Below are positions 1,416 to 37,819 of a DNA stretch of 64,000 nucleotides, piece after piece. The position numbers were made by a program, and so were the translations under genes. Source of the stretch: Escherichia phage iGC_PHA_EC001; sequence record OR437326.1; one strand, 5' to 3'. The first letter of the stretch is position 1. The number at the start of each line of letters is the position of its first letter. The notes beneath the pieces were generated by a model. The model made no database searches. It saw only the letters and a program-made list of their open reading frames with translations, and was not told where the DNA came from.

Positions 1416-2069
1416 CTATACCAGACTTTGTAGGTATTTGTCAAGGGCTTCTTGATCACCTTGACAAACATAGCAACGGAAGTCTTGAGCCGAAGGTTGT
1501 TTATTTTCATCCCAGTCCCAATAAACATTACCCTTATAACGTGAACCAGGAAACTCAAAAGAGGCTATATGTGTAATGTATCCTGGGCCACCAGTGAAAT
1601 CACAGAATGAGAATTGGGGGTATGCCGCCTTTACTGCCTCAATAAACCAAGCTTTACGATCTAAGGCTTCATTGATGCTATACGCATGTCTCTCCATTTC
1701 TTCCCAAGTCTTCCAGACACTTCTCTCATCAGGAGAAAAGACAAGCCATTCTGGAAGGTAGAGAGTGTCATAGTAATCATCATATTCGATCTCGGAGGCG
1801 CACGAAGCTGACTCCTCCAGTTTTGAGTAATCAAAAGCAGAATATACCCACCAACCATCTTCCAGTAAGGCTTTGATAGGGACGAAGCCTTTATCAGCAT
1901 ATTGATCGAATTGTTTGACACGGTGGCTTGTGCAGTCTTCAAACTCACATTCTAAACGATATGCACCTTTTCGACGAGCCTCAAGACCGTGTGTACTGAA
2001 AATAACAACACTTCCTTCACCATCATTACGATCTACTTGATAAGCAACTACTGGTTTTGAATTTGACAT
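1416..2069 (-). CDS. hypothetical protein
   Basis: 217-aa ORF with AAGGAGAAATA RBS. Confidence 0.55.
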   Translation of the reverse strand: MSNSKPVVAYQVDRNDGEGSVVIFSTHGLEARRKGAYRLECEFEDCTSHRVKQFDQYADKGFVPIKALLEDGWWVYSAFDYSKLEESASCASEIEYDDYYDTLYLPEWLVFSPDERSVWKTWEEMERHAYSINEALDRKAWFIEAVKAAYPQFSFCDFTGGPGYITHIASFEFPGSRYKGNVYWDWDENKQPSAQDFRCYVCQGDQEALDKYLQSLV

Positions 2070-2752
2070 TATTTCTCCTTATCTAGAAGATTGTTAGACA
2101 AAAACACGGCACGAGCAAAACCACGTGCGGTTAGGGATCTAAGTTGTTTTGTTTTTGCACTAGCTCCACCTAAGCTTTTCCAACCCCAGAAGCAGCCTAT
2201 ATGATCTACTGGTTTCTTCACTGGTTGAACAAAACCATTGCCGTGCCAAATACAAGTTTTCTTTGTATACCCATCACGGGTAGGCATTTTAGGATGAAAG
2301 CTTCCTTCCTCTTCAAACAAATACCCACCATACTCATAAGGATCAAAGTAAAAATCGGGTTTACGCCATAAGGTTGAAAGTTTACCTACTGGGTTCTCAA
2401 TCATCCAAGGAACATTATATTTGTTACCCAAAGCTTCCACTACACGAATATTAGCTAAAGCTTCATCTAATTCCTCTGTGCTACGTTCGTGTTTGCTACC
2501 ACTACCCGCTAACATAGTGCAAGGTGGAAATCCAAAAATAATATCGGGTTTAGGTATCCCATGATCTTCAGGGTTGAATGTAGAATCTATCCAGGCATTC
2601 ACATAGGTTATGTTTGGGTGCTCCATCCTAACCTCGTATTTACCGTGATCCCCTTCATCAGCGTTTACACAAAAACACTTGTGACCTGCTTCGGCATAAC
2701 GTAACACCATGATCCCAGATCCGTCAAACATAGACAAAACTGTTTTACTCAT
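2069..2752 (-). CDS. C5-cytosine methyltransferase-like protein (short, no obvious target-recognition domain)
   Basis: motif I-like FDGSG, motif IV-like GFPPC (Pro-Cys catalytic dipeptide), motif VI-like ENPVGKL; start set at MSKTVLS after GGAGGGGTA RBS (track ORF starts earlier). Confidence 0.5.
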   Translation of the reverse strand: MSKTVLSMFDGSGIMVLRYAEAGHKCFCVNADEGDHGKYEVRMEHPNITYVNAWIDSTFNPEDHGIPKPDIIFGFPPCTMLAGSGSKHERSTEELDEALANIRVVEALGNKYNVPWMIENPVGKLSTLWRKPDFYFDPYEYGGYLFEEEGSFHPKMPTRDGYTKKTCIWHGNGFVQPVKKPVDHIGCFWGWKSLGGASAKTKQLRSLTARGFARAVFLSNNLLDKEK

Positions 2753-9163: not shown

Positions 9164-9673
9164 TTAAACAAAATAAAATGGTTGAGAGAGGCCCAAACGA
9201 TTCTTTGGGTCGTATACATACCAAGCGTATGCTGTCTTATCTGTTCCACCTGCAACAAACGAAGGCCGTTCTGAAAGGACTATAAGGTTTGTTGGTGGAC
9301 TCTTTTGATGGAACTCTCGTCGTTTCTTTGACTCCAAGAAGCCCAACCTAAGAAGATAAATACAAACATCCGCCTCTTTTAAGCTCTTTTCCAAGAACTC
9401 CATTGCCAACTTAAATGGAGGATTTGTGATTATAATGTCGGGACGATTTTCCCATTCATGACTAAAATAATCTTTACCTTCTTCAAGTTCGCAATATTCT
9501 GAACCTTCAGGAAAATGGCGATAAATCGCTTCAGCTTCACCTCTGCAAGGTTCTGCAAAAACCCAACCTTCTTCCTTTAAATTTTTGAAATCTATAACAC
9601 TAAACAAACTATTGATTGCTTTTTGCGGTGTCGGATAATAATCGCTCGTTGGGCGATCATAATCTAATGCCAT
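9164..9673 (-). CDS. small DNA N6-adenine methyltransferase-like protein
   Basis: DYYPTP motif plus IIITNPPF (motif IV NPPF); GAGGAG RBS. Confidence 0.5.
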   Translation of the reverse strand: MALDYDRPTSDYYPTPQKAINSLFSVIDFKNLKEEGWVFAEPCRGEAEAIYRHFPEGSEYCELEEGKDYFSHEWENRPDIIITNPPFKLAMEFLEKSLKEADVCIYLLRLGFLESKKRREFHQKSPPTNLIVLSERPSFVAGGTDKTAYAWYVYDPKNRLGLSQPFYFV

Positions 9674-10091
9674 CTAAAATCTCCTCTTTTGTAATATTAT
9701 CCAACTCTTTAAAGGATGAAATCTCGTTTAATAATCCTATTTGATCAGCTTCTAGAGGATAAGTGTTTTTATCTGTTTTTCTAGACAGAATATCTTCAAC
9801 AAACTTATCAATAGCCAAAGAAGAATCATAAAATTTTAAAAGTTGGTAATCCATAGGAGATATTTTGTCATCTCTTAGAAATATTTCTAACATGTTTTCA
9901 GGAGTATCGTGGTTTAGTTTATGTTCACCAAAAATATTAACTTCGTAAACATCTTTGCCAAACCAACGTTTCTTCTTTTCAACAGTATAGGTTTTTGCCA
10001 CCAGACCATCTAAACAGTTTCTTGCCCTCTTACATGTTTGACGGTAAGAGTGGATAGCGCCTTCAACAAACTTAGCAGGAACTTGTAACAT
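9657..10091 (-). CDS. hypothetical protein
   Basis: RBS TAGGAG; 144 aa. Confidence 0.5.
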   Translation of the reverse strand: MLQVPAKFVEGAIHSYRQTCKRARNCLDGLVAKTYTVEKKKRWFGKDVYEVNIFGEHKLNHDTPENMLEIFLRDDKISPMDYQLLKFYDSSLAIDKFVEDILSRKTDKNTYPLEADQIGLLNEISSFKELDNITKEEILDGIRL

Positions 10092-10136
10092 TATTAATCT
10101 CCTATGTTTAAGAAATGCCCCCGAAGGGGCAGTTTG

Positions 10137-10829: not shown

Positions 10830-11329
10830 TATTCTTCCTCCTCTGTTAATGTTTTAAGAACCGCTTTCCCGCCATTCACATATTTGCAGATGTATTCTAT
10901 CGCACGTAGTGTTTCTTTGTCAACAAAAATTTGATCAGACGTTGCGAGCGGGTTATTAAGAAGATCACTGCAATCACGAACAAGCAGTGCTTTCTTATTA
11001 AACAAATTACTTAAGAACAGTAACTTCGCCTCTTCTTCTGTTATGTGCAGAAGGCTAGGATCGGAGCCAGCTATTCCTATTATACAATCAAACAAGCTTT
11101 CTTTACTATCAGAAAGTTCTTGAAAATGGTTTAAAAGCCAATCTTCTCCTAGACACCAACATTTAAACATTTCCAGTTTATCTCGGAGGGTCATATTCTC
11201 TAAAGTAAGAGCAATCTCTTTTTCAATATGGTTTACACAAATTTGACGAAATTCGTTAGGTTTTACGAGTCCCGTTTGATAGCACTCATCTATACCGCTT
11301 CTTCCGATAGCTATTGTTGCTACACCCAT
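10829..11329 (-). CDS. hypothetical protein
   Basis: RBS AAGGAGG; 166 aa. Confidence 0.5.
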   Translation of the reverse strand: MGVATIAIGRSGIDECYQTGLVKPNEFRQICVNHIEKEIALTLENMTLRDKLEMFKCWCLGEDWLLNHFQELSDSKESLFDCIIGIAGSDPSLLHITEEEAKLLFLSNLFNKKALLVRDCSDLLNNPLATSDQIFVDKETLRAIEYICKYVNGGKAVLKTLTEEEE

Positions 11330-12160: not shown

Positions 12161-12661
12161 TTATTTGTAAGCATCTAAAGTTCCAGAAGTCAGAACTTTA
12201 ATTACTCGTTCAGCACGGTTTGGCGTCTGGCTATACCATCGGCTTTTACGCATGTTTTTACCTGCTTGAGTATAATATGCATTGCTGATTAAAGTCAAGC
12301 TATTTTGAAACCCTTCAGCACCTTTTAACCCCAACTGGAAAACCATGTTAATTATTCCCAATTTACGAGTATCACTAACCTTATCATAGATTGGTGATAA
12401 GATAGTACTGTTTTTTATGTCTCTCTTCACTTTTGCAACATCGTCAGCAAAGATTTGACGGGCTTCTTTTTCTGTGATAACTCCATTAGTCTTACGACCA
12501 AGAAGATTATCTAAGATTTGAATAGCCTTTGCTTTATCTTTTATTTTAGTCAGAAGGTGTCCTATGCCGACTGTCCAATAACCAAGATGGTCTTGATAAA
12601 CAGTAAGCTTCAGTCCTTCATCGACTCGTAGCATATCAAACTCATCTACTACTTTAGCCAT
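12161..12661 (-). CDS. T4-type lysozyme (endolysin, glycoside hydrolase family 24)
   Basis: near-colinear similarity to T4 lysozyme: MLRVDEGLKLTVYQDHLGYWTVGIGHLLTK and C-terminal KSRWYSQTPNRAERVIKVLTSGTLDAYK. Confidence 0.85.
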   Translation of the reverse strand: MAKVVDEFDMLRVDEGLKLTVYQDHLGYWTVGIGHLLTKIKDKAKAIQILDNLLGRKTNGVITEKEARQIFADDVAKVKRDIKNSTILSPIYDKVSDTRKLGIINMVFQLGLKGAEGFQNSLTLISNAYYTQAGKNMRKSRWYSQTPNRAERVIKVLTSGTLDAYK

Positions 12662-12668
12662 TTACTTC

Positions 12669-12818
12669 CTATTCGTCGTCTCCTACTCCGTGATCCAACT
12701 CGTTAAACAACAGATGTTCTGGAGAAGTTTCACGTTTTGGTTTCGTTTTCTTTATGTTGGACTTCAGCTCATTTGCCAAAGCACGAGAAAAGATCTTACG
12801 TTTCTGTTTACTTTTCAT
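12669..12818 (-). CDS. hypothetical small basic protein (49 aa, below ORF-track cutoff)
   Basis: manual translation MKSKQKRKIFSRALANELKS...; RBS GGAGTAACAATT. Confidence 0.35.
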   Translation of the reverse strand: MKSKQKRKIFSRALANELKSNIKKTKPKRETSPEHLLFNELDHGVGDDE

Positions 12819-12823
12819 AATTG

Positions 12824-13084
12824 TTACTCCGCAATTTGAGCCATGAGATCACGCAGTTCGGTAAAACCGCCTACGTATGTTACCTCCCCGTTCACTTCAG
12901 ACAGAATTTGTGGAAATGTGCGTGGAGGAACTCCGGTAAGATCAACAACTGTTTTAGTCATTGATTCTAAATCATAGTCTTGATCAAGACTTAAATATTC
13001 AAACTGTTTATTGCGCATGGTTAATAGTTGTTTTGACATTTCGCAAAATTGACAGTTAGGTTTACCAAAAATTACAAATTCCAT
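12824..13084 (-). CDS. glutaredoxin/NrdH-like thiol-disulfide oxidoreductase
   Basis: N-terminal FGKPNCQFC CxxC active-site motif in an 86-aa protein; RBS AAGGAGAGG; start overlaps rmlD stop. Confidence 0.6.
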   Translation of the reverse strand: MEFVIFGKPNCQFCEMSKQLLTMRNKQFEYLSLDQDYDLESMTKTVVDLTGVPPRTFPQILSEVNGEVTYVGGFTELRDLMAQIAE

Positions 13085-13926
13085 TACCTCTCCTTATTAA
13101 GTAATACTGCTAAAGACTGTTCAATACCTTTATTTAAATCTGATTTTGTAAGATAGTGACTGGTTACTAGTTGTGACTTCACCGGACGTGCTGCTGGAGC
13201 ATTATAGGTTGAAGCTGATACCGCCGATATCTTAACAGGTTCTGGCATCTGTGTCAAGATCTTTTCCGCAAACTCCGCCCAAGAAATAAGATGGCTTCCT
13301 GCAAAATGGTAAGTCTTAACAGACCTTGACCAACCTGTTTTTAATACTTCAAAAATAGCTTCTGCTAAATCTGGAGCATATGTTGGACAAGAGAACTGAT
13401 CAGCAACAATAATAAAATCACGTTGTCCATCATTATAGCGAGACAACATGGTTTTTAGAAAGTTATTTCCAAATTCGCTATATACCGAGGCTGTTCGAAT
13501 AATATATGTATTTGGGTTAACTCCTCGCACCATTTTTTCACCAAGTTCTTTCGTATACCCATAATTGTTTATTGGGTTAGGTGTAGTATCTTCAAAAATA
13601 GGATGAGAATAATTAAAAATATAATCTGTAGAAATATGCACAAAATCAATTTTAAGTTTGCTGCACACTGCCGCAATATTTGCAGGTCCATACGCATTAA
13701 CAGCCAAAGCAGTAGCAAAATCATGTTCTGCTTTATCTACAGCCGTATAAGCGGCGCAATTAATAACCCCATCTACATAATCTTCAAGAATAGCGTTTCG
13801 CACAGCTTCAAAATTTGTAATATCTACACGTTCTTTAGGATAAGTTAAAGATACATTTGAAGGAGCCACTTTACGTAAAGCTTGTCCCAGTTGTCCATTA
13901 CCGCCCAATACCAGATATGTTAGCAT
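13084..13926 (-). CDS. rmlD: dTDP-4-dehydrorhamnose reductase (RmlD-like)
   Basis: Rossmann LGGNGQLG; INCAAYTAVDKAE and HISTDYIF match RmlD signature blocks; 280 aa. Confidence 0.8.
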   Translation of the reverse strand: MLTYLVLGGNGQLGQALRKVAPSNVSLTYPKERVDITNFEAVRNAILEDYVDGVINCAAYTAVDKAEHDFATALAVNAYGPANIAAVCSKLKIDFVHISTDYIFNYSHPIFEDTTPNPINNYGYTKELGEKMVRGVNPNTYIIRTASVYSEFGNNFLKTMLSRYNDGQRDFIIVADQFSCPTYAPDLAEAIFEVLKTGWSRSVKTYHFAGSHLISWAEFAEKILTQMPEPVKISAVSASTYNAPAARPVKSQLVTSHYLTKSDLNKGIEQSLAVLLNKER

Positions 13927-14486
13927 ACACCCTCGCTACGTAACTGTTGAAAAGATTTAGCCATTGCATCTTTTGTTGATAAGATAGGTTTAAAACCTTC
14001 GTCAAAAATCATATCGAAGCCCCAATCGATCCCTATGTCAGGATCATCCCAACGTAAACTTTGTTCACTAGAAGGGTCGTATGGAGTTGTGCATTTGTAT
14101 TCAAAGATCGCATCCATACTCAAAACTATAAAACCATGTGCCAAACCAGGAGGAAGCCAAAACTGCGTATGGTGTCGTGCACGAAGAACAACACCGTCCC
14201 AAGCACCGTAAGTTGGACTATCTTTACGTAAATCTACAGCGAAATCCAATACTTCCCCACTTACACAACGAACAAGCTTACCTTGCGGATTATTTGTTTG
14301 AAAGTGCATTCCTCGCAAAACACCGAAGTTTGATTTAGACATATTATCTTGAACGAAAGTTTGTTTACCAATGATATCTTCGTATTTTTGTTCATTGTAT
14401 GTTTCTAAAAAGAAACCACGATCATCTTTATAAACGTCTGGTTTGATAATTACCGCACCTTCAATTTTTGTTTTTTCTACTTTCAT
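13920..14486 (-). CDS. rmlC: dTDP-4-dehydrorhamnose 3,5-epimerase (RmlC-like)
   Basis: DDRGFFLETYN, GVLRGMHFQ, KLVRCVSGEVLDFAVDLRKDSPTYG, PPGLAHGFIVLS align by eye with RmlC/RfbC along whole length. Confidence 0.85.
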   Translation of the reverse strand: MKVEKTKIEGAVIIKPDVYKDDRGFFLETYNEQKYEDIIGKQTFVQDNMSKSNFGVLRGMHFQTNNPQGKLVRCVSGEVLDFAVDLRKDSPTYGAWDGVVLRARHHTQFWLPPGLAHGFIVLSMDAIFEYKCTTPYDPSSEQSLRWDDPDIGIDWGFDMIFDEGFKPILSTKDAMAKSFQQLRSEGVC

Positions 14487-14495
14487 TTTCTCTCC

Positions 14496-14822
14496 TTACC
14501 AGACATGTTGAGAAATAATAGTTTCCGTTTTAATGTTATATTTTTCAAGTAGCTCTGCATAGGCTTCTTTTGCATTCTCATTTACTTGCTCAAGATCTAC
14601 AGCTACGCTTCCTTCTCCGCCTTCTAAATAAATACCATATATGCAATAAGACTCATCAGCATCGTAGAAAGGAGAGATGCGACTTAAGTCAAGACCTTCT
14701 TGTAAGAACCAGTTAAAATCTCCGTCAAATTCTTCTTCAATTCTAGGGTCTTCTCCTACAGCCTCTTCCCATTTATTAAAAGGTGCACCCTGTAACATAC
14801 GCCATTCGATATCAATACCCAT
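14496..14822 (-). CDS. hypothetical protein
   Basis: 108-aa ORF in operon-like arrangement. Confidence 0.5.
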   Translation of the reverse strand: MGIDIEWRMLQGAPFNKWEEAVGEDPRIEEEFDGDFNWFLQEGLDLSRISPFYDADESYCIYGIYLEGGEGSVAVDLEQVNENAKEAYAELLEKYNIKTETIISQHVW

Positions 14823-35901: not shown

Positions 35902-35976
35902 GGCCCTGTAGCTCAATGGGAGAGCTGTCGGCTCATAACCGATAGGTAGCTGGATCGAAACCAGCCAGGGCCACCA
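35902..35976 (+). tRNA. tRNA-Met (anticodon CAT; could alternatively be Ile2/lysidine)
   Basis: acceptor GGCCCTG/CAGGGCC, D-arm TAGCTCAATGGGAGAGC, anticodon loop CTCATAA, T-arm GCTGGATCGAAACCAGC, encoded CCA. Confidence 0.7.
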
Positions 35977-35978
35977 AA

Positions 35979-36053
35979 GTCTTTATGGTGTAATGGATAG
36001 CACAGGAGTCTTCTAAACTCTTAGTCAAGGTTCGATTCCTTGTAAAGACACCA
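35979..36053 (+). tRNA. tRNA-Arg (anticodon TCT)
   Basis: acceptor GTCTTTA/TAAAGAC, anticodon loop CTTCTAA, T-arm CAAGGTTCGATTCCTTG, CCA encoded. Confidence 0.7.
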
Positions 36054-36249
36054 GAACATTTTAACATGAATTAGCTCAAGTGATTTGAACCCACTACTGA
36101 TCATGGTGGCAGAGAATGAGGCAAGTATGTCAGACATTATAAACAAAGGCCACGGTTATATTAGAAGACATAAATGCTCGAAGAGCACCGTTCGTGGAGA
36201 ACGGGGGTTGGTGGAGTCACCATTCATGGTAAAATGTTTTAAAAAACTA

Positions 36250-36280
36250 TTGACAACAAACATTATTTTATGTTAGATTA
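36250..36280 (+). promoter_or_regulatory. sigma70-like promoter (AACTATTGACAA family, copy 2)
   Basis: TTGACA at 36250-36255, TAGATT 18 nt downstream, immediately upstream of tRNA-Ser. Confidence 0.45.
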
Positions 36281-36287
36281 TAAGTAT

Positions 36288-36378
36288 GGAAGGGCAAATC
36301 GATGTGGCGACGAAAACGGTCTTGAAAACCGCCGAGCTTGAAAGAGCCTTGGGAGTTCGACTCTCCCTCCTTCCGCCA
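36288..36378 (+). tRNA. tRNA-Ser (anticodon TGA), type II with long variable arm
   Basis: acceptor GGAAGGG/TCCTTCC, anticodon arm CGGTCTTGAAAACCG, T-arm GGGAGTTCGACTCTCCC, CCA. Confidence 0.65.
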
Positions 36379-36383
36379 GATTA

Positions 36384-36469
36384 GGTAGATTGGTGAAATG
36401 GTAGCCACGACAGTTTGCTAAACTGTAGTCGGAAACGGCGTGTAGGTTCGAGTCCTACATCTACCGCCA
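36384..36469 (+). tRNA. tRNA-Ser (anticodon GCT), type II
   Basis: acceptor GGTAGAT/ATCTACC, anticodon arm ACAGTTTGCTAAACTGT, T-arm GTAGGTTCGAGTCCTAC, CCA. Confidence 0.65.
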
Positions 36470-36599
36470 AGTTCTTTTTAATGTAGCTTACTTTAGCAGA
36501 GTAAATCTTCGGCAAGTGGCGGTAACCACTTTACCGATACCTCATAGTTAGTGGTCTGAACACTGGCTATTTTAAAAAGAATTTAAATATTAGTATTTA

Positions 36600-36687
36600 G
36601 GTGAGTTAATTCCGTAGGGGTAGCGGGGCAGACTGTAAATCTGTTATCATTGCGATTCGGGTGGTTCGACTCCATCACTCACCACCA
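36600..36687 (+). tRNA. tRNA-Tyr (anticodon GTA), type II
   Basis: acceptor GGTGAGT/ACTCACC, anticodon arm GCAGACTGTAAATCTGT (near identical to E. coli tRNA-Tyr), T-arm GGTGGTTCGACTCCATC, CCA. Confidence 0.65.
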
Positions 36688-36693
36688 AATTAA

Positions 36694-36779
36694 GATGAGT
36701 TGGCTGAATGGTTTAAGCGGCGGACTGTTAATCCGTGTTCGAAAGAACAATATAGGTTCGAATCCTATACTCATCGCCA
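36694..36779 (+). tRNA. tRNA with anticodon GTT (Asn by anticodon) but atypical long variable arm
   Basis: acceptor GATGAGT/ACTCATC, anticodon stem-loop GCGGA-CTGTTAA-TCCGT at positions 27-43, extra hairpin GTTCGAAAGAAC, T-arm ATAGGTTCGAATCCTAT, CCA. Confidence 0.45.
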
Positions 36780-36786
36780 GAATTAT

Positions 36787-36862
36787 GGACTTGTAGAGTT
36801 AAGGTAAACCCCAGTAGCCAAGAGGCTTCTGGAATTGCAGGTATCGAATCCTGCCGAGTCCC
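36787..36862 (+). ncRNA. tRNA-like element without canonical anticodon arm (possible pseudo-tRNA or small RNA)
   Basis: acceptor pairing GGACTTG/CGAGTCC and T-arm-like GCAGGTATCGAATCCTGC, but central region folds as CCAG-T-AGCC-AAGA-GGCT-T-CTGG hairpin. Confidence 0.3.
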
Positions 36863-36868
36863 AGCTTT

Positions 36869-36943
36869 GCTCCTATAGTATAATGGCTATTACAACGGTT
36901 TTGTAATCCGTGGATCTCTGTTCGATTCAGAGTGGGAGCACCA
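36869..36943 (+). tRNA. tRNA-Thr (anticodon TGT)
   Basis: acceptor GCTCCTA/TGGGAGC, anticodon loop TTTGTAA, T-arm CTCTGTTCGATTCAGAG, CCA. Confidence 0.7.
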
Positions 36944-37211
36944 ACACAACATTAAGGGCACTGTGATTGATCGTCGTATCCTGTGCACAAGGTCTGTTCG
37001 AAAGACAGTGTTCTTAGTATTGTGTTGATCACAAAAAGAGTCACCTGAAACTTGACCGGAGTAGGGTTGGATGGGGTAAAGAAGAAGCGGATTCTCCCAT
37101 CGACGTGATAGTTTTCCAGTGTTGCAAGCGACACCCAGGAGGTTAATCACAACCGAACGTAGGGCTAGTCACCCAAAGGGATACTCGTCACTGTCCCACT
37201 CAATAAAACTA

Positions 37212-37242
37212 TTGACAACCAATAGTAAAATGTAGTATAGTA
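37212..37242 (+). promoter_or_regulatory. sigma70-like promoter (AACTATTGACAA family, copy 3)
   Basis: TTGACA at 37212-37217, TATAGT 18 nt downstream, upstream of tRNA-Gly. Confidence 0.45.
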
Positions 37243-37252
37243 AATATGTAGG

Positions 37253-37326
37253 GCGTTCTTGGTGTAGCGGTAGCATTCCGTCCTTCCAAGTCGGCGGCAC
37301 GAGTTCGATCCTCGTAGAACGCTCCA
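37253..37326 (+). tRNA. tRNA-Gly (anticodon TCC)
   Basis: acceptor GCGTTCT/AGAACGC, anticodon loop CTTCCAA, T-arm ACGAGTTCGATCCTCGT, CCA. Confidence 0.65.
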
Positions 37327-37424
37327 AATTATTTAATAAAGGGTTGCCAGAAAACTTTCTCTTTTACTCATGGTTTTCTCCTTCTCTCACACTTCTTCTG
37401 GTTGCCCTTCATTAAATGATTTAT

Positions 37425-37500
37425 TGGTTTGTAGTGTAGTCAGGTAGCACACGACACTTTGACTGTCGTAGGTTTGGTTCAAATCCAGACAGACCAGCCA
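37425..37500 (+). tRNA. tRNA-Gln (anticodon TTG)
   Basis: acceptor TGGTTTG/CAGACCA, anticodon arm CGACACTTTGACTGTCG, T-arm TTTGGTTCAAATCCAGA, CCA. Confidence 0.7.
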
Positions 37501-37505
37501 TATAA

Positions 37506-37582
37506 CGGAATTTAGCTCAGTTTGGTAGAGCATACGCTTTGGGAGCGTAGGGTCGCAGGTTCGAATCCTGCAATTCCGACCA
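37506..37582 (+). tRNA. tRNA-Pro (anticodon TGG)
   Basis: acceptor CGGAATT/AATTCCG, D-arm GCTCAGTTTGGTAGAGC, anticodon arm TACGCTTTGGGAGCGTA, T-arm GCAGGTTCGAATCCTGC, CCA. Confidence 0.75.
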
Positions 37583-37588
37583 ATTTAA

Positions 37589-37662
37589 TGTTTCGTAGTT
37601 CAATGGTAGAACCCACGACTGATAATCGTGAGATACAAGTTCGATTCTTGTCGAAACAACCA
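37589..37662 (+). tRNA. tRNA-Ile (anticodon GAT)
   Basis: acceptor TGTTTCG/CGAAACA, anticodon arm CACGACTGATAATCGTG, T-arm ACAAGTTCGATTCTTGT, CCA. Confidence 0.75.
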
Positions 37663-37664
37663 GT

Positions 37665-37734
37665 TTCCCGTTAGACTTACAGGATAAGAGTTCCACAACT
37701 TATTGTGATGCTGGTTCGAATCCAGCACGGGATA
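37665..37734 (+). ncRNA. tRNA-like element, anticodon not assignable
   Basis: acceptor TTCCCGT/ACGGGAT (1:72 mismatch) and canonical T-arm GCTGGTTCGAATCCAGC, but no 5-bp/7-nt anticodon stem-loop could be folded (CACAA-CTTA-TTGTG tetraloop hairpin instead); no encoded CCA. Confidence 0.3.
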
Positions 37735-37740
37735 CCTAAT

Positions 37741-37819
37741 AGCGGGATAGAGGAGTCTGGTCGTCCTCGCCAGTTTCATATGCTGGAGATCATCGGTTCA
37801 AATCCGATTCCCGCCTCCA
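37741..37819 (+). tRNA. tRNA-Met-like (anticodon CAT) with unpaired 1:72 and TTCAAAT T-loop (possible initiator-type)
   Basis: acceptor AGCGGGA/TCCCGCC (A1 x C72), anticodon arm CCAGT-TTCATAT-GCTGG, T-arm ATCGGTTCAAATCCGAT, CCA. Confidence 0.5.

Follow-up and report, generated by a model that had tools for sequence, protein, structure and literature searches.

The 64,000-nt stretch of Escherichia phage iGC_PHA_EC001 analyzed here (sequence record OR437326.1; referred to as the window) encodes a 169-residue protein that is likely an orphan, sequence-specific, SAM-dependent DNA N6-adenine methyltransferase consisting of the catalytic Rossmann-like domain alone. DNA N6-adenine methylation is the best-supported activity because the protein retains an intact amino-methyltransferase core, its family occurs in the replication modules of phages and prophages, and its family profile is homologous to that of a phage Dam family. 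Among the observations that count against this reading, the clade to which the protein belongs has lost the second glycine of motif I to a replacement, no Pfam or NCBIfam threshold is passed, and the matches to solved folds are only moderate. The gene had already been annotated and is a typical member of a known phage family, routine in phAPEC8-, phi92-, and rV5-type phages. For the window itself, the gene therefore matters little; the modest point of interest lies at the level of the abundant PHROG 799 family, whose members manage without a recognition domain.

The methyltransferase gene and its phage relatives

The open reading frame (ORF) list and translation place the ATG start codon at 9671-9673 and the TAA stop codon at 9164-9166 on the minus strand (Table 1). 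The start overlaps the stop of an upstream 144-aa ORF (9657-10091) by 17 nt, and an AGGAG ribosome-binding site is annotated in the phi92 record at the place equivalent to that of the Shine-Dalgarno sequence. Comparison with the orthologue in phi92, which is 76% identical in nucleotides and 85% in amino acids, gave a dN/dS of 0.06; synonymous sites are saturated in this pair. Intact and translatable, the gene is subject to strong purifying selection.

Over the 10 kb that surround the gene, the sequence shares 99% identity with Escherichia phage phAPEC8 and other members of the genus Phapecoctavirus. In the RefSeq record of phAPEC8, the gene is gp177, annotated "DNA methyltransferase," a name also carried by the identical protein in GenBank (WMI32597.1). 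BASEL phage PaulScherrer has an orthologue that belongs to the same cluster at 90% identity and is named "putative N6 adenine methyltransferase." Using tblastn, the protein was found in 543 phage records. The copies in phi92-like phages are 84-85% identical to it, those of rV5/FV3 and other Vequintavirinae 47-50%, and those of K139/kappa and PV94, which are P2-like Vibrio phages, 35%. Remoter copies were retrieved by the same search from phages of Aeromonas, Staphylococcus, Streptococcus, Clostridioides, and Bacillus.

Table 1. Positions of the methyltransferase features in the window
Feature	Position	Strand	Basis or remark
CDS, 169-aa methyltransferase (orthologue of phAPEC8 gp177 and phi92 gp056)	9164..9673, including stop codon	-	ORF, PHROG 799, RefSeq/GenBank, dN/dS
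Shine-Dalgarno GAGGAG, 7 nt upstream of the methyltransferase ATG	9681..9686	-	Read from sequence
Motif X, D11-Y-Y-P-T15-P16	9626..9643	-	Translation, conservation, HsdM and PF05869 alignments
Motif I, E41-P-C-R-G45, SAM-binding loop after strand beta1 (E39-41 in the model)	9539..9553	-	Conservation, 7vru alignment, model
Motif II acidic residue E62, end of beta2	9488..9490	-	At least 90% conserved (50 homologues); strand position from model
Motif III, D68-Y69	9467..9472	-	At least 90% conserved (50 homologues)
Motif IV, N84-P-P-F87, candidate catalytic loop directly after beta4 (I80-T83)	9413..9424	-	Conservation, alignments
Motif VIII-like, R136-P-S-F139	9257..9268	-	Conservation; aligns to R-I-P-F of the HP1 Dam family
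227-aa compact C5-cytosine-methyltransferase-like protein, ATG at 2752	2069..2752	-	Outside the operon unit of the 169-aa gene
C5-like motif FDGSG	2714-2728	-	Place of C5-methyltransferase motif I
C5-like motif FPPCT	2516-2530	-	Place of C5-methyltransferase motif IV
C5-like motif ENPVG	2384-2398	-	Place of C5-methyltransferase motif VI

A large family of small phage and prophage proteins

Over residues 4-163, the protein matches PHROG 799, named "DNA methyltransferase" (E 8.7e-59, 200.9 bits), as does the K139/kappa protein kp12 (1.3e-71). The name given to this PHROG is itself a prediction, and our search of the literature for biochemical or methylome data on any PHROG 799 member found none. 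When 1.84 billion representative proteins were searched exhaustively with a profile, 13,702 clusters (50% identity) passed E<=1e-3, and 7,191 passed E<=1e-10. PHROG 799 is thus a very large family, and it is almost exclusively confined to phages and prophages. Because nearly all relatives are 160-220 aa long, small size is the family norm rather than a sign of truncation. The earlier note on this DNA had described the protein as "miniature"; the small size is real, but as the description of an anomaly, the word does not hold for a protein with some 13,700 relative clusters of mostly this size.

PHROG 799 is without a Pfam model. No Pfam or NCBIfam threshold is passed by the 169-aa protein (NCBIfam gave no match), and a precomputed Pfam domain is listed for 0 of 120 relatives. 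Below threshold, the protein matches EcoRI_methylase (E 0.02; 14.7 bits against a cutoff of 26.4) and MTS (E 0.3). Sub-threshold matches across 50 family members are mainly to the DNA adenine methyltransferase families EcoRI_methylase (38 members), Dam (11), and Eco57I (7), besides MTS, a general small domain (7).

Departures from the usual size are instructive. Some members carry a zinc-ribbon insertion between the RPSF motif and a GTD motif, or a zinc-ribbon tail at the C terminus. In one homologue of 560 aa, the domain occurs twice in tandem, the first copy carrying NPPH and the second NPPY, an arrangement which hints that the unit may act as a dimer.

Motifs, conservation, and the modified base

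The linear order of motifs, X-I-II-III-IV-VIII, is that of gamma-class amino-methyltransferases, and all of these motifs are present. As read from the sequence, the motif signal of the protein is far beyond chance. The translation places the DYYPTP and NPPF motifs, on which the earlier note had based its assignment, at residues 11-16 and 84-87. Conservation was assessed in 50 homologues, down to 40% identity. Invariant positions in this set are T15, E41, P42, C43, T83, N84, P85, P86, F93, E100, L107, R118, R136, P137, and F139, and position 87 is either F or Y. Conservation of at least 90% was observed for Y13, P16, G45, E62, D68, and Y69, among others.

Several of the motifs align to those of other methyltransferases. 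In the family profile, DYYPTP corresponds to FYTPRTIV of the HsdM chain 7vru and, in profile-profile comparison, to DLWATP of PF05869; this motif X would contact SAM. Motif I has the family consensus EPCRGxG and aligns to DPACGTGG of 7vru; in the 169-aa protein and in phi92, the second glycine is replaced by alanine and one extra residue is present. By analogy with the general class I methyltransferase fold, E62 would bind the ribose hydroxyls of SAM, and D68-Y69, by analogy with gamma-class enzymes, would contact the SAM adenine. The NPPF of motif IV aligns to NPPFS of HsdM 7vru and to NPPYS of the HP1 Dam family. This type of loop is associated with methylation of an exocyclic amino group. 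Finally, RPSF and the loop that follows are candidates for the wall of the base pocket and for nucleic-acid contact. In residues 140-148 of this loop, the pLDDT of the structural model (described below) dips to about 75, and it is here that some homologues (e.g., P0052 and P0072) carry their zinc-ribbon insertions.

Amino-methyltransferase sequences do not allow N6-adenine and N4-cytosine enzymes to be told apart with certainty, and the departure of motif I from GxG in this clade could be taken as a sign of lost activity. Even so, we regard it as extremely improbable that the protein is a DNA N4-cytosine methyltransferase or a catalytically dead protein that binds SAM or DNA. NPPF and NPPY are the usual adenine-type forms of motif IV, whereas N4-cytosine enzymes usually have SPPY or SPPF. 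In addition, catalytic and SAM-binding positions are invariant or nearly so, and the low dN/dS is unlike that of a decayed enzyme.

Predicted structure and fold neighbors

An AlphaFold2 model built from the family alignment (pLDDT 91.5, pTM 0.88) has a compact alpha/beta core, and the predicted fold is that of a class I SAM-methyltransferase core. The earlier note had raised the question of whether a SAM-binding fold would be predicted at all; in light of this model and of the conservation of the SAM-binding and catalytic motifs, its description of the protein as N6-adenine-methyltransferase-like can be retained at the level of sequence and predicted structure. Within the model, motif X lies before the first helix, motif I after beta1, motif II after beta2, motif IV after beta4, and the motif VIII-like segment after beta6. 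The chain ends 30 residues past motif VIII, and a separate target-recognition domain is absent from both sequence and model.

Among PDB entries, the best folds retrieved by Foldseek were the type I M subunit 3ufb, M.TaqI, and CamA (E 1e-4 to 2e-4, TM about 0.5-0.6). All three are gamma-class DNA adenine methyltransferases. The RNA methyltransferases PH1948, Dim1/KsgA, Erm, TrmM, and METTL5 follow at E 3e-4 to 9e-3, no more than one to two orders of magnitude behind the DNA enzymes. PH1948 was matched at E 3e-4 with a TMq of 0.59, and its TM relative to target length (0.52) was the highest. Because RNA methyltransferases are nearly as close in fold, the fold alone does not fix the substrate. 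In a viral structure library, the neighbors beyond the protein's own family are models of phage "DNA N-6-adenine-methyltransferase" (E 1e-7 to 1e-5), and one neighbor is labeled COG2263 "predicted RNA methylase." No significant match came from searches of PDB sequences, whether the query was the single protein or a profile of 51 sequences, and PHROG 799 as a family is likewise without a relative of solved structure by sequence search. At weak scores, the profile search aligned the "YPTP ... EPCxG" block to the HsdM chains 7vru and 2okc, and Erm (1yub) scored similarly over the same span.

Profile homology to phage Dam

Profile-profile comparison was carried out with hhalign and links the PHROG 799 family to PF05869 (probability 94.2%, E 1.2e-7, 123 aligned columns). 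Three motif pairs stand in register in this alignment: DxYPTP with DLWATP, NPPFS with NPPYS, and RPSF with RIPF. The link is also seen from the other side: HP1 orf13 (173 aa), the sole methyltransferase annotated in HP1, matches PF05869 at E 7e-75 (250.8 bits) and PHROG 799 at 1.3e-7. BLASTP of the 169-aa protein against HP1 Dam gave no alignment, so the relationship emerges at the profile level only. In keeping with this distance, the protein does not match PF05869 at its gathering threshold (28.1 bits), and the 11 sub-threshold Dam matches among the 50 family members reach E 0.0046 at best. PF05869 is itself without a solved structure by sequence search. The description "Dam-like" in the earlier note is therefore well founded with respect to the small HP1-type phage Dam family and is not supported with respect to PF05869 membership at threshold or to the E. 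coli/T4 Dam class.

A Dam methyltransferase gene has been cloned from HP1, as cited in two papers. Since HP1 orf13 is only 173 aa long and a phage Dam gene was cloned, a separate recognition domain is evidently not required for such an enzyme, and site-specific methylation of DNA is within reach of a domain this small. At this sequence distance, the GATC specificity of HP1-type Dam is not transferable to the 169-aa protein.

Genomic context

From 1 to 16 kb of the window, all genes are on the minus strand. The methyltransferase gene is preceded by genes for PhoH, a small ORF, an HslV-like peptidase, and the 144-aa ORF. FV3, Ro1, an Avunavirus phage, and phi92 share the gene order PhoH-protease-methyltransferase. 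We considered the 144-aa ORF as a possible specificity partner and rejected it: it matches only PHROG 15078 (function unknown), with no Pfam or PADLOC match; it is limited to the phAPEC8/phi92 group and does not accompany the methyltransferase in FV3, Ro1, or the Avunavirus phage; and it is unrelated to the longer proteases of those three phages.

In K139/kappa, the homologue belongs to an early operon, where it adjoins the replication initiator; Dam has the same placement in HP1. At 63 bacterial loci that carry relatives, which lie in prophage modules for replication and lysogeny, the recurrent neighbors encode a P2-type Rep nickase, CI- and CII-like regulators, a DnaB helicase, a beta-clamp, and a C5 DNA methyltransferase. 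Clustering of the neighbors at these loci revealed no recurrent restriction endonuclease, nuclease, or partner gene near the homologues. Likewise, no cognate restriction endonuclease adjoins the gene in the window or in related phages, where PhoH, the HslV-like peptidase, and small hypothetical proteins are found instead. PADLOC gave only weak "MTase_II" matches (E 3.6e-4). Taken together, these surroundings are those of an orphan DNA methyltransferase of phages.

An alternative substrate is RNA, with the enzyme placing m6A or m2G on tRNA or rRNA of the host or the phage. NPPF and NPPY loops also occur in TrmM/YfiC, METTL5/PH1948-type, and RsmD-like enzymes, and the closeness of RNA methyltransferases in the Foldseek ranking, the weak MTS matches, and the COG2263 neighbor all point in this direction. 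So does the tRNA complement of the phage (10 genes), together with a CCA tRNA nucleotidyltransferase gene that lies a few genes downstream of the methyltransferase in Ro1 and the Avunavirus phage. We nonetheless consider an RNA substrate unlikely. The tRNA cluster is 26 kb from the methyltransferase gene, the family is frequent within the replication modules of small P2-like prophages, and its profile homology is to a phage family acting on DNA. The alignment of the motif X and motif I block to HsdM also argues for DNA, although that to Erm is similarly weak.

Restriction sites and the question of specificity

Several palindromes are strongly avoided in the window, including GTAC (0.26 of expectation), CCGG (0.32), and GGCC (0.45), and no sites were found for CTGCAG, CAGCTG, CCATGG, and GCATGC. 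By k-mer statistics, TGCA, ATAT, and AGCT are not avoided. GATC is not avoided either (277 observed versus 288 expected), a result that is compatible with GATC methylation and says nothing specific. Inferring the recognition site of the enzyme from these k-mer statistics was attempted and rejected, as the pattern is too unspecific to assign a site.

The missing recognition domain would also suit a DNA adenine methyltransferase with little or no specificity, which would hypermethylate DNA in the manner of the non-specific adenine methyltransferases Hia5 and M.EcoGII and provide broad protection against restriction. We judge such an activity very unlikely. Hia5 and M.EcoGII belong to other classes, and no Pfam match ties the 169-aa protein to them. 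The window holds 17 GAATTC and 30 GATATC sites, which blanket m6A is expected to protect against their enzymes, and the genome instead depends on avoiding many palindromes strongly. Adenine methyltransferases of phages and prophages whose specificity is extremely relaxed are on record, the OS31 enzyme being an example from the literature. In the BASEL study, however, Vequintavirinae and phi92-like phages were reported as exceptionally susceptible to the restriction-modification systems tested, and the orthologue-carrying phage PaulScherrer is among these. As phages that carry orthologues are restriction susceptible, the enzyme gives no broad protection.

Proposed mode of action

For a sequence-specific DNA N6-adenine methyltransferase of this size, we propose the following mode of action. 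SAM would be held by motifs X and I-III, and the target adenine would be flipped into a pocket formed by NPPF and F139, where its N6 would be methylated directly. Reading of the DNA would fall to loops within the catalytic domain itself. The basic helix S115-K-K-R-R119, which includes the invariant R118, is one candidate, and the loop R136-D145 is another, the latter because homologues insert zinc ribbons there. The enzyme is possibly dimeric. The recognized site is probably short, with GATC, the site of the distantly related HP1-type Dam, as one candidate. Expressed from the conserved PhoH-protease-methyltransferase block, the enzyme would modify phage DNA as it replicates and, incidentally, the DNA of the host, marking or protecting specific sites rather than providing blanket protection.

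It is doubtful, in our estimation, that PHROG 799 represents a distinct, recognition-domain-free class of amino-methyltransferases with unconventional targeting, whether through loop reading in an obligate dimer, a preference for DNA that is single-stranded or replicating, or an RNA target in place of sites in duplex DNA. Once known, the target motif of PHROG 799 would be of use in reading phage methylomes and in accounting for the pairing of two small methyltransferases with strong avoidance of restriction sites in phages to which common restriction systems are still a threat.

A compact C5-methyltransferase-like companion

The second of these methyltransferases is encoded at 2069-2752 (Table 1). 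The 227-aa protein matches PHROG 757 "DNA methyltransferase" (E 1.8e-84), and its counterpart in phAPEC8, gp194, is annotated "DNA methyltransferase." Its AlphaFold model (pLDDT 84) finds its best PDB folds in the catalytic domains of DNMT3A/3B (E about 1e-6). These matches bear out the earlier note in recognizing a second methyltransferase-like gene at this place, but its description as "truncated" does not hold: relatives are all about 215-245 aa long (some are named "DNA cytosine methyltransferase" by NCBI), and the protein is a full-length member of a compact family. The same two methyltransferase assignments were made via InterPro and HHpred in the paper describing the related Pectobacterium phage CB7.

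Comparison with known systems

Within PHROG 799 (phAPEC8 gp177, phi92 gp056, rV5/FV3 ORF115, and K139/kappa kp12), members share the same length and motifs, and nothing differs in the 169-aa protein; in relatives of the phage, the synteny is also the same as in the window.

The Dam enzymes of E. coli and T4 are likewise SAM-dependent adenine-N6 methyltransferases found in phages, and their function may be analogous. They are not of the same family: these alpha-class enzymes (Pfam MethyltransfD12) gave no sequence or profile match to the 169-aa protein, and their motifs follow another order, around a central recognition domain. A fused Mycoplasma methyltransferase from the literature was also considered and set aside as unrelated, since it combines beta and alpha classes.

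The gamma class (M.TaqI, type I HsdM, CamA, and the Eco57I/N6_Mtase Pfam families) shares the motif order of the 169-aa protein and provides its best solved folds, and motifs X, I, and IV align to HsdM 7vru. Gamma-class enzymes differ in having a large C-terminal recognition domain or a separate S subunit, neither of which is present here. The similarity is also limited in degree, with a TM of only about 0.5-0.6 and with the N6_Mtase, Eco57I, and EcoRI_methylase Pfam thresholds not passed.

The HP1 Dam family, PF05869, to which we take the Dam proteins of T1 and VT-2 to belong, shares with the 169-aa protein its size class, its single-domain layout, an N-terminal D-x-aromatic-x-T-P, a central NPP[FY]S, and a C-terminal R-x-x-F. 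The two differ at motif I, which is a degenerate LDxCA in PF05869 and a canonical-looking EPCRGxG in the 169-aa protein. The early replication operons of P2-like phages are home to both, with a PF05869 Dam in HP1 and a PHROG 799 homologue in K139/kappa.

Restriction sites in the window

Many restriction-type palindromes are strongly under-represented in the window, as judged by k-mer statistics over positions 1-64000. GTAC was observed 49 times against 185 expected, and observed/expected ratios were 0.32 for CCGG, 0.45 for GGCC, and 0.60 for CTAG. Over the same positions, CTGCAG, CAGCTG, CCATGG, and GCATGC had 0 sites each (14.6, 9, 6.6, and 5.2 expected, respectively), and counts of GATC, TGCA, ATAT, and AGCT were close to expectation. 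Site avoidance, rather than methylation, appears to be the chief anti-restriction strategy of this phage.

Features annotated in the window
Feature	Position	Strand	Remarks
Second small methyltransferase (227 aa)	2069-2752	-	PHROG 757
144-aa ORF	9657-10091	-	PHROG 15078 match (unknown function)
GC-rich hairpin with T-rich tail	10116-10131	-	TGCCCCTTCGGGGGCA; separates the HslV-like peptidase gene from the 144-aa ORF
Near-consensus sigma-70-like promoter	10894-10923	-	TTGACA-18-TAGAAT; upstream of the HslV-like peptidase gene
RmlD-like gene (dTDP-rhamnose pathway)	13084-13926	-	Kept in window
RmlC-like gene (dTDP-rhamnose pathway)	13920-14486	-	Kept in window
tRNA cluster (n = 10)	35902-37819	+	Met, Arg, Ser, Asn, Thr, Gly, Gln, Pro, Ile, Met

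Context and homologues of the 169-residue methyltransferase

The start of the probable N6-adenine methyltransferase gene is overlapped by 17 nt by the 144-aa ORF, which is confined to the phAPEC8/phi92 group and has no match in Pfam or PADLOC. Homologues of this ORF (142 to 144 aa) share the methyltransferase's cluster in protein clustering at 90% identity, a grouping that probably stems from some fused or read-through gene call. Because a hairpin lies between the peptidase gene and the 144-aa ORF and a sigma-70-like promoter lies upstream of the peptidase gene, the methyltransferase may be read through the hairpin, which would act as an attenuator.

Among the metagenomic homologues, P0223 (560 aa) carries the small methyltransferase domain twice, in tandem on a single chain, with catalytic motifs NPPH in the first copy and NPPY in the second. 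A low-complexity, signal-peptide-like N-terminus precedes both copies. P0223 may represent a pseudo-dimer in which one of the halves is inactive.

Other candidate modification genes

Approximately 1.9 kb of phAPEC8, encoding glucose-1-phosphate thymidylyltransferase and one nucleotide-sugar epimerase/dehydratase, is missing from the window, as seen when window 12824-14822 (minus strand) is set against positions 12483-14362 of the phAPEC8 sequence L001. The dTDP-rhamnose pathway, whose role in DNA glycosylation is a speculation in published work, is thereby reduced to the RmlD-like and RmlC-like genes, the same two that are left in phage Mt1B1_P17.

The second small methyltransferase bears the C5-type motifs FDGSG, FPPCT, and ENPVG and is a full-length representative of a large family with members of about 215 to 245 aa. 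The nearest match to its predicted fold is provided by the catalytic domains of DNMT3A/3B, in which recognition domains are minimal.
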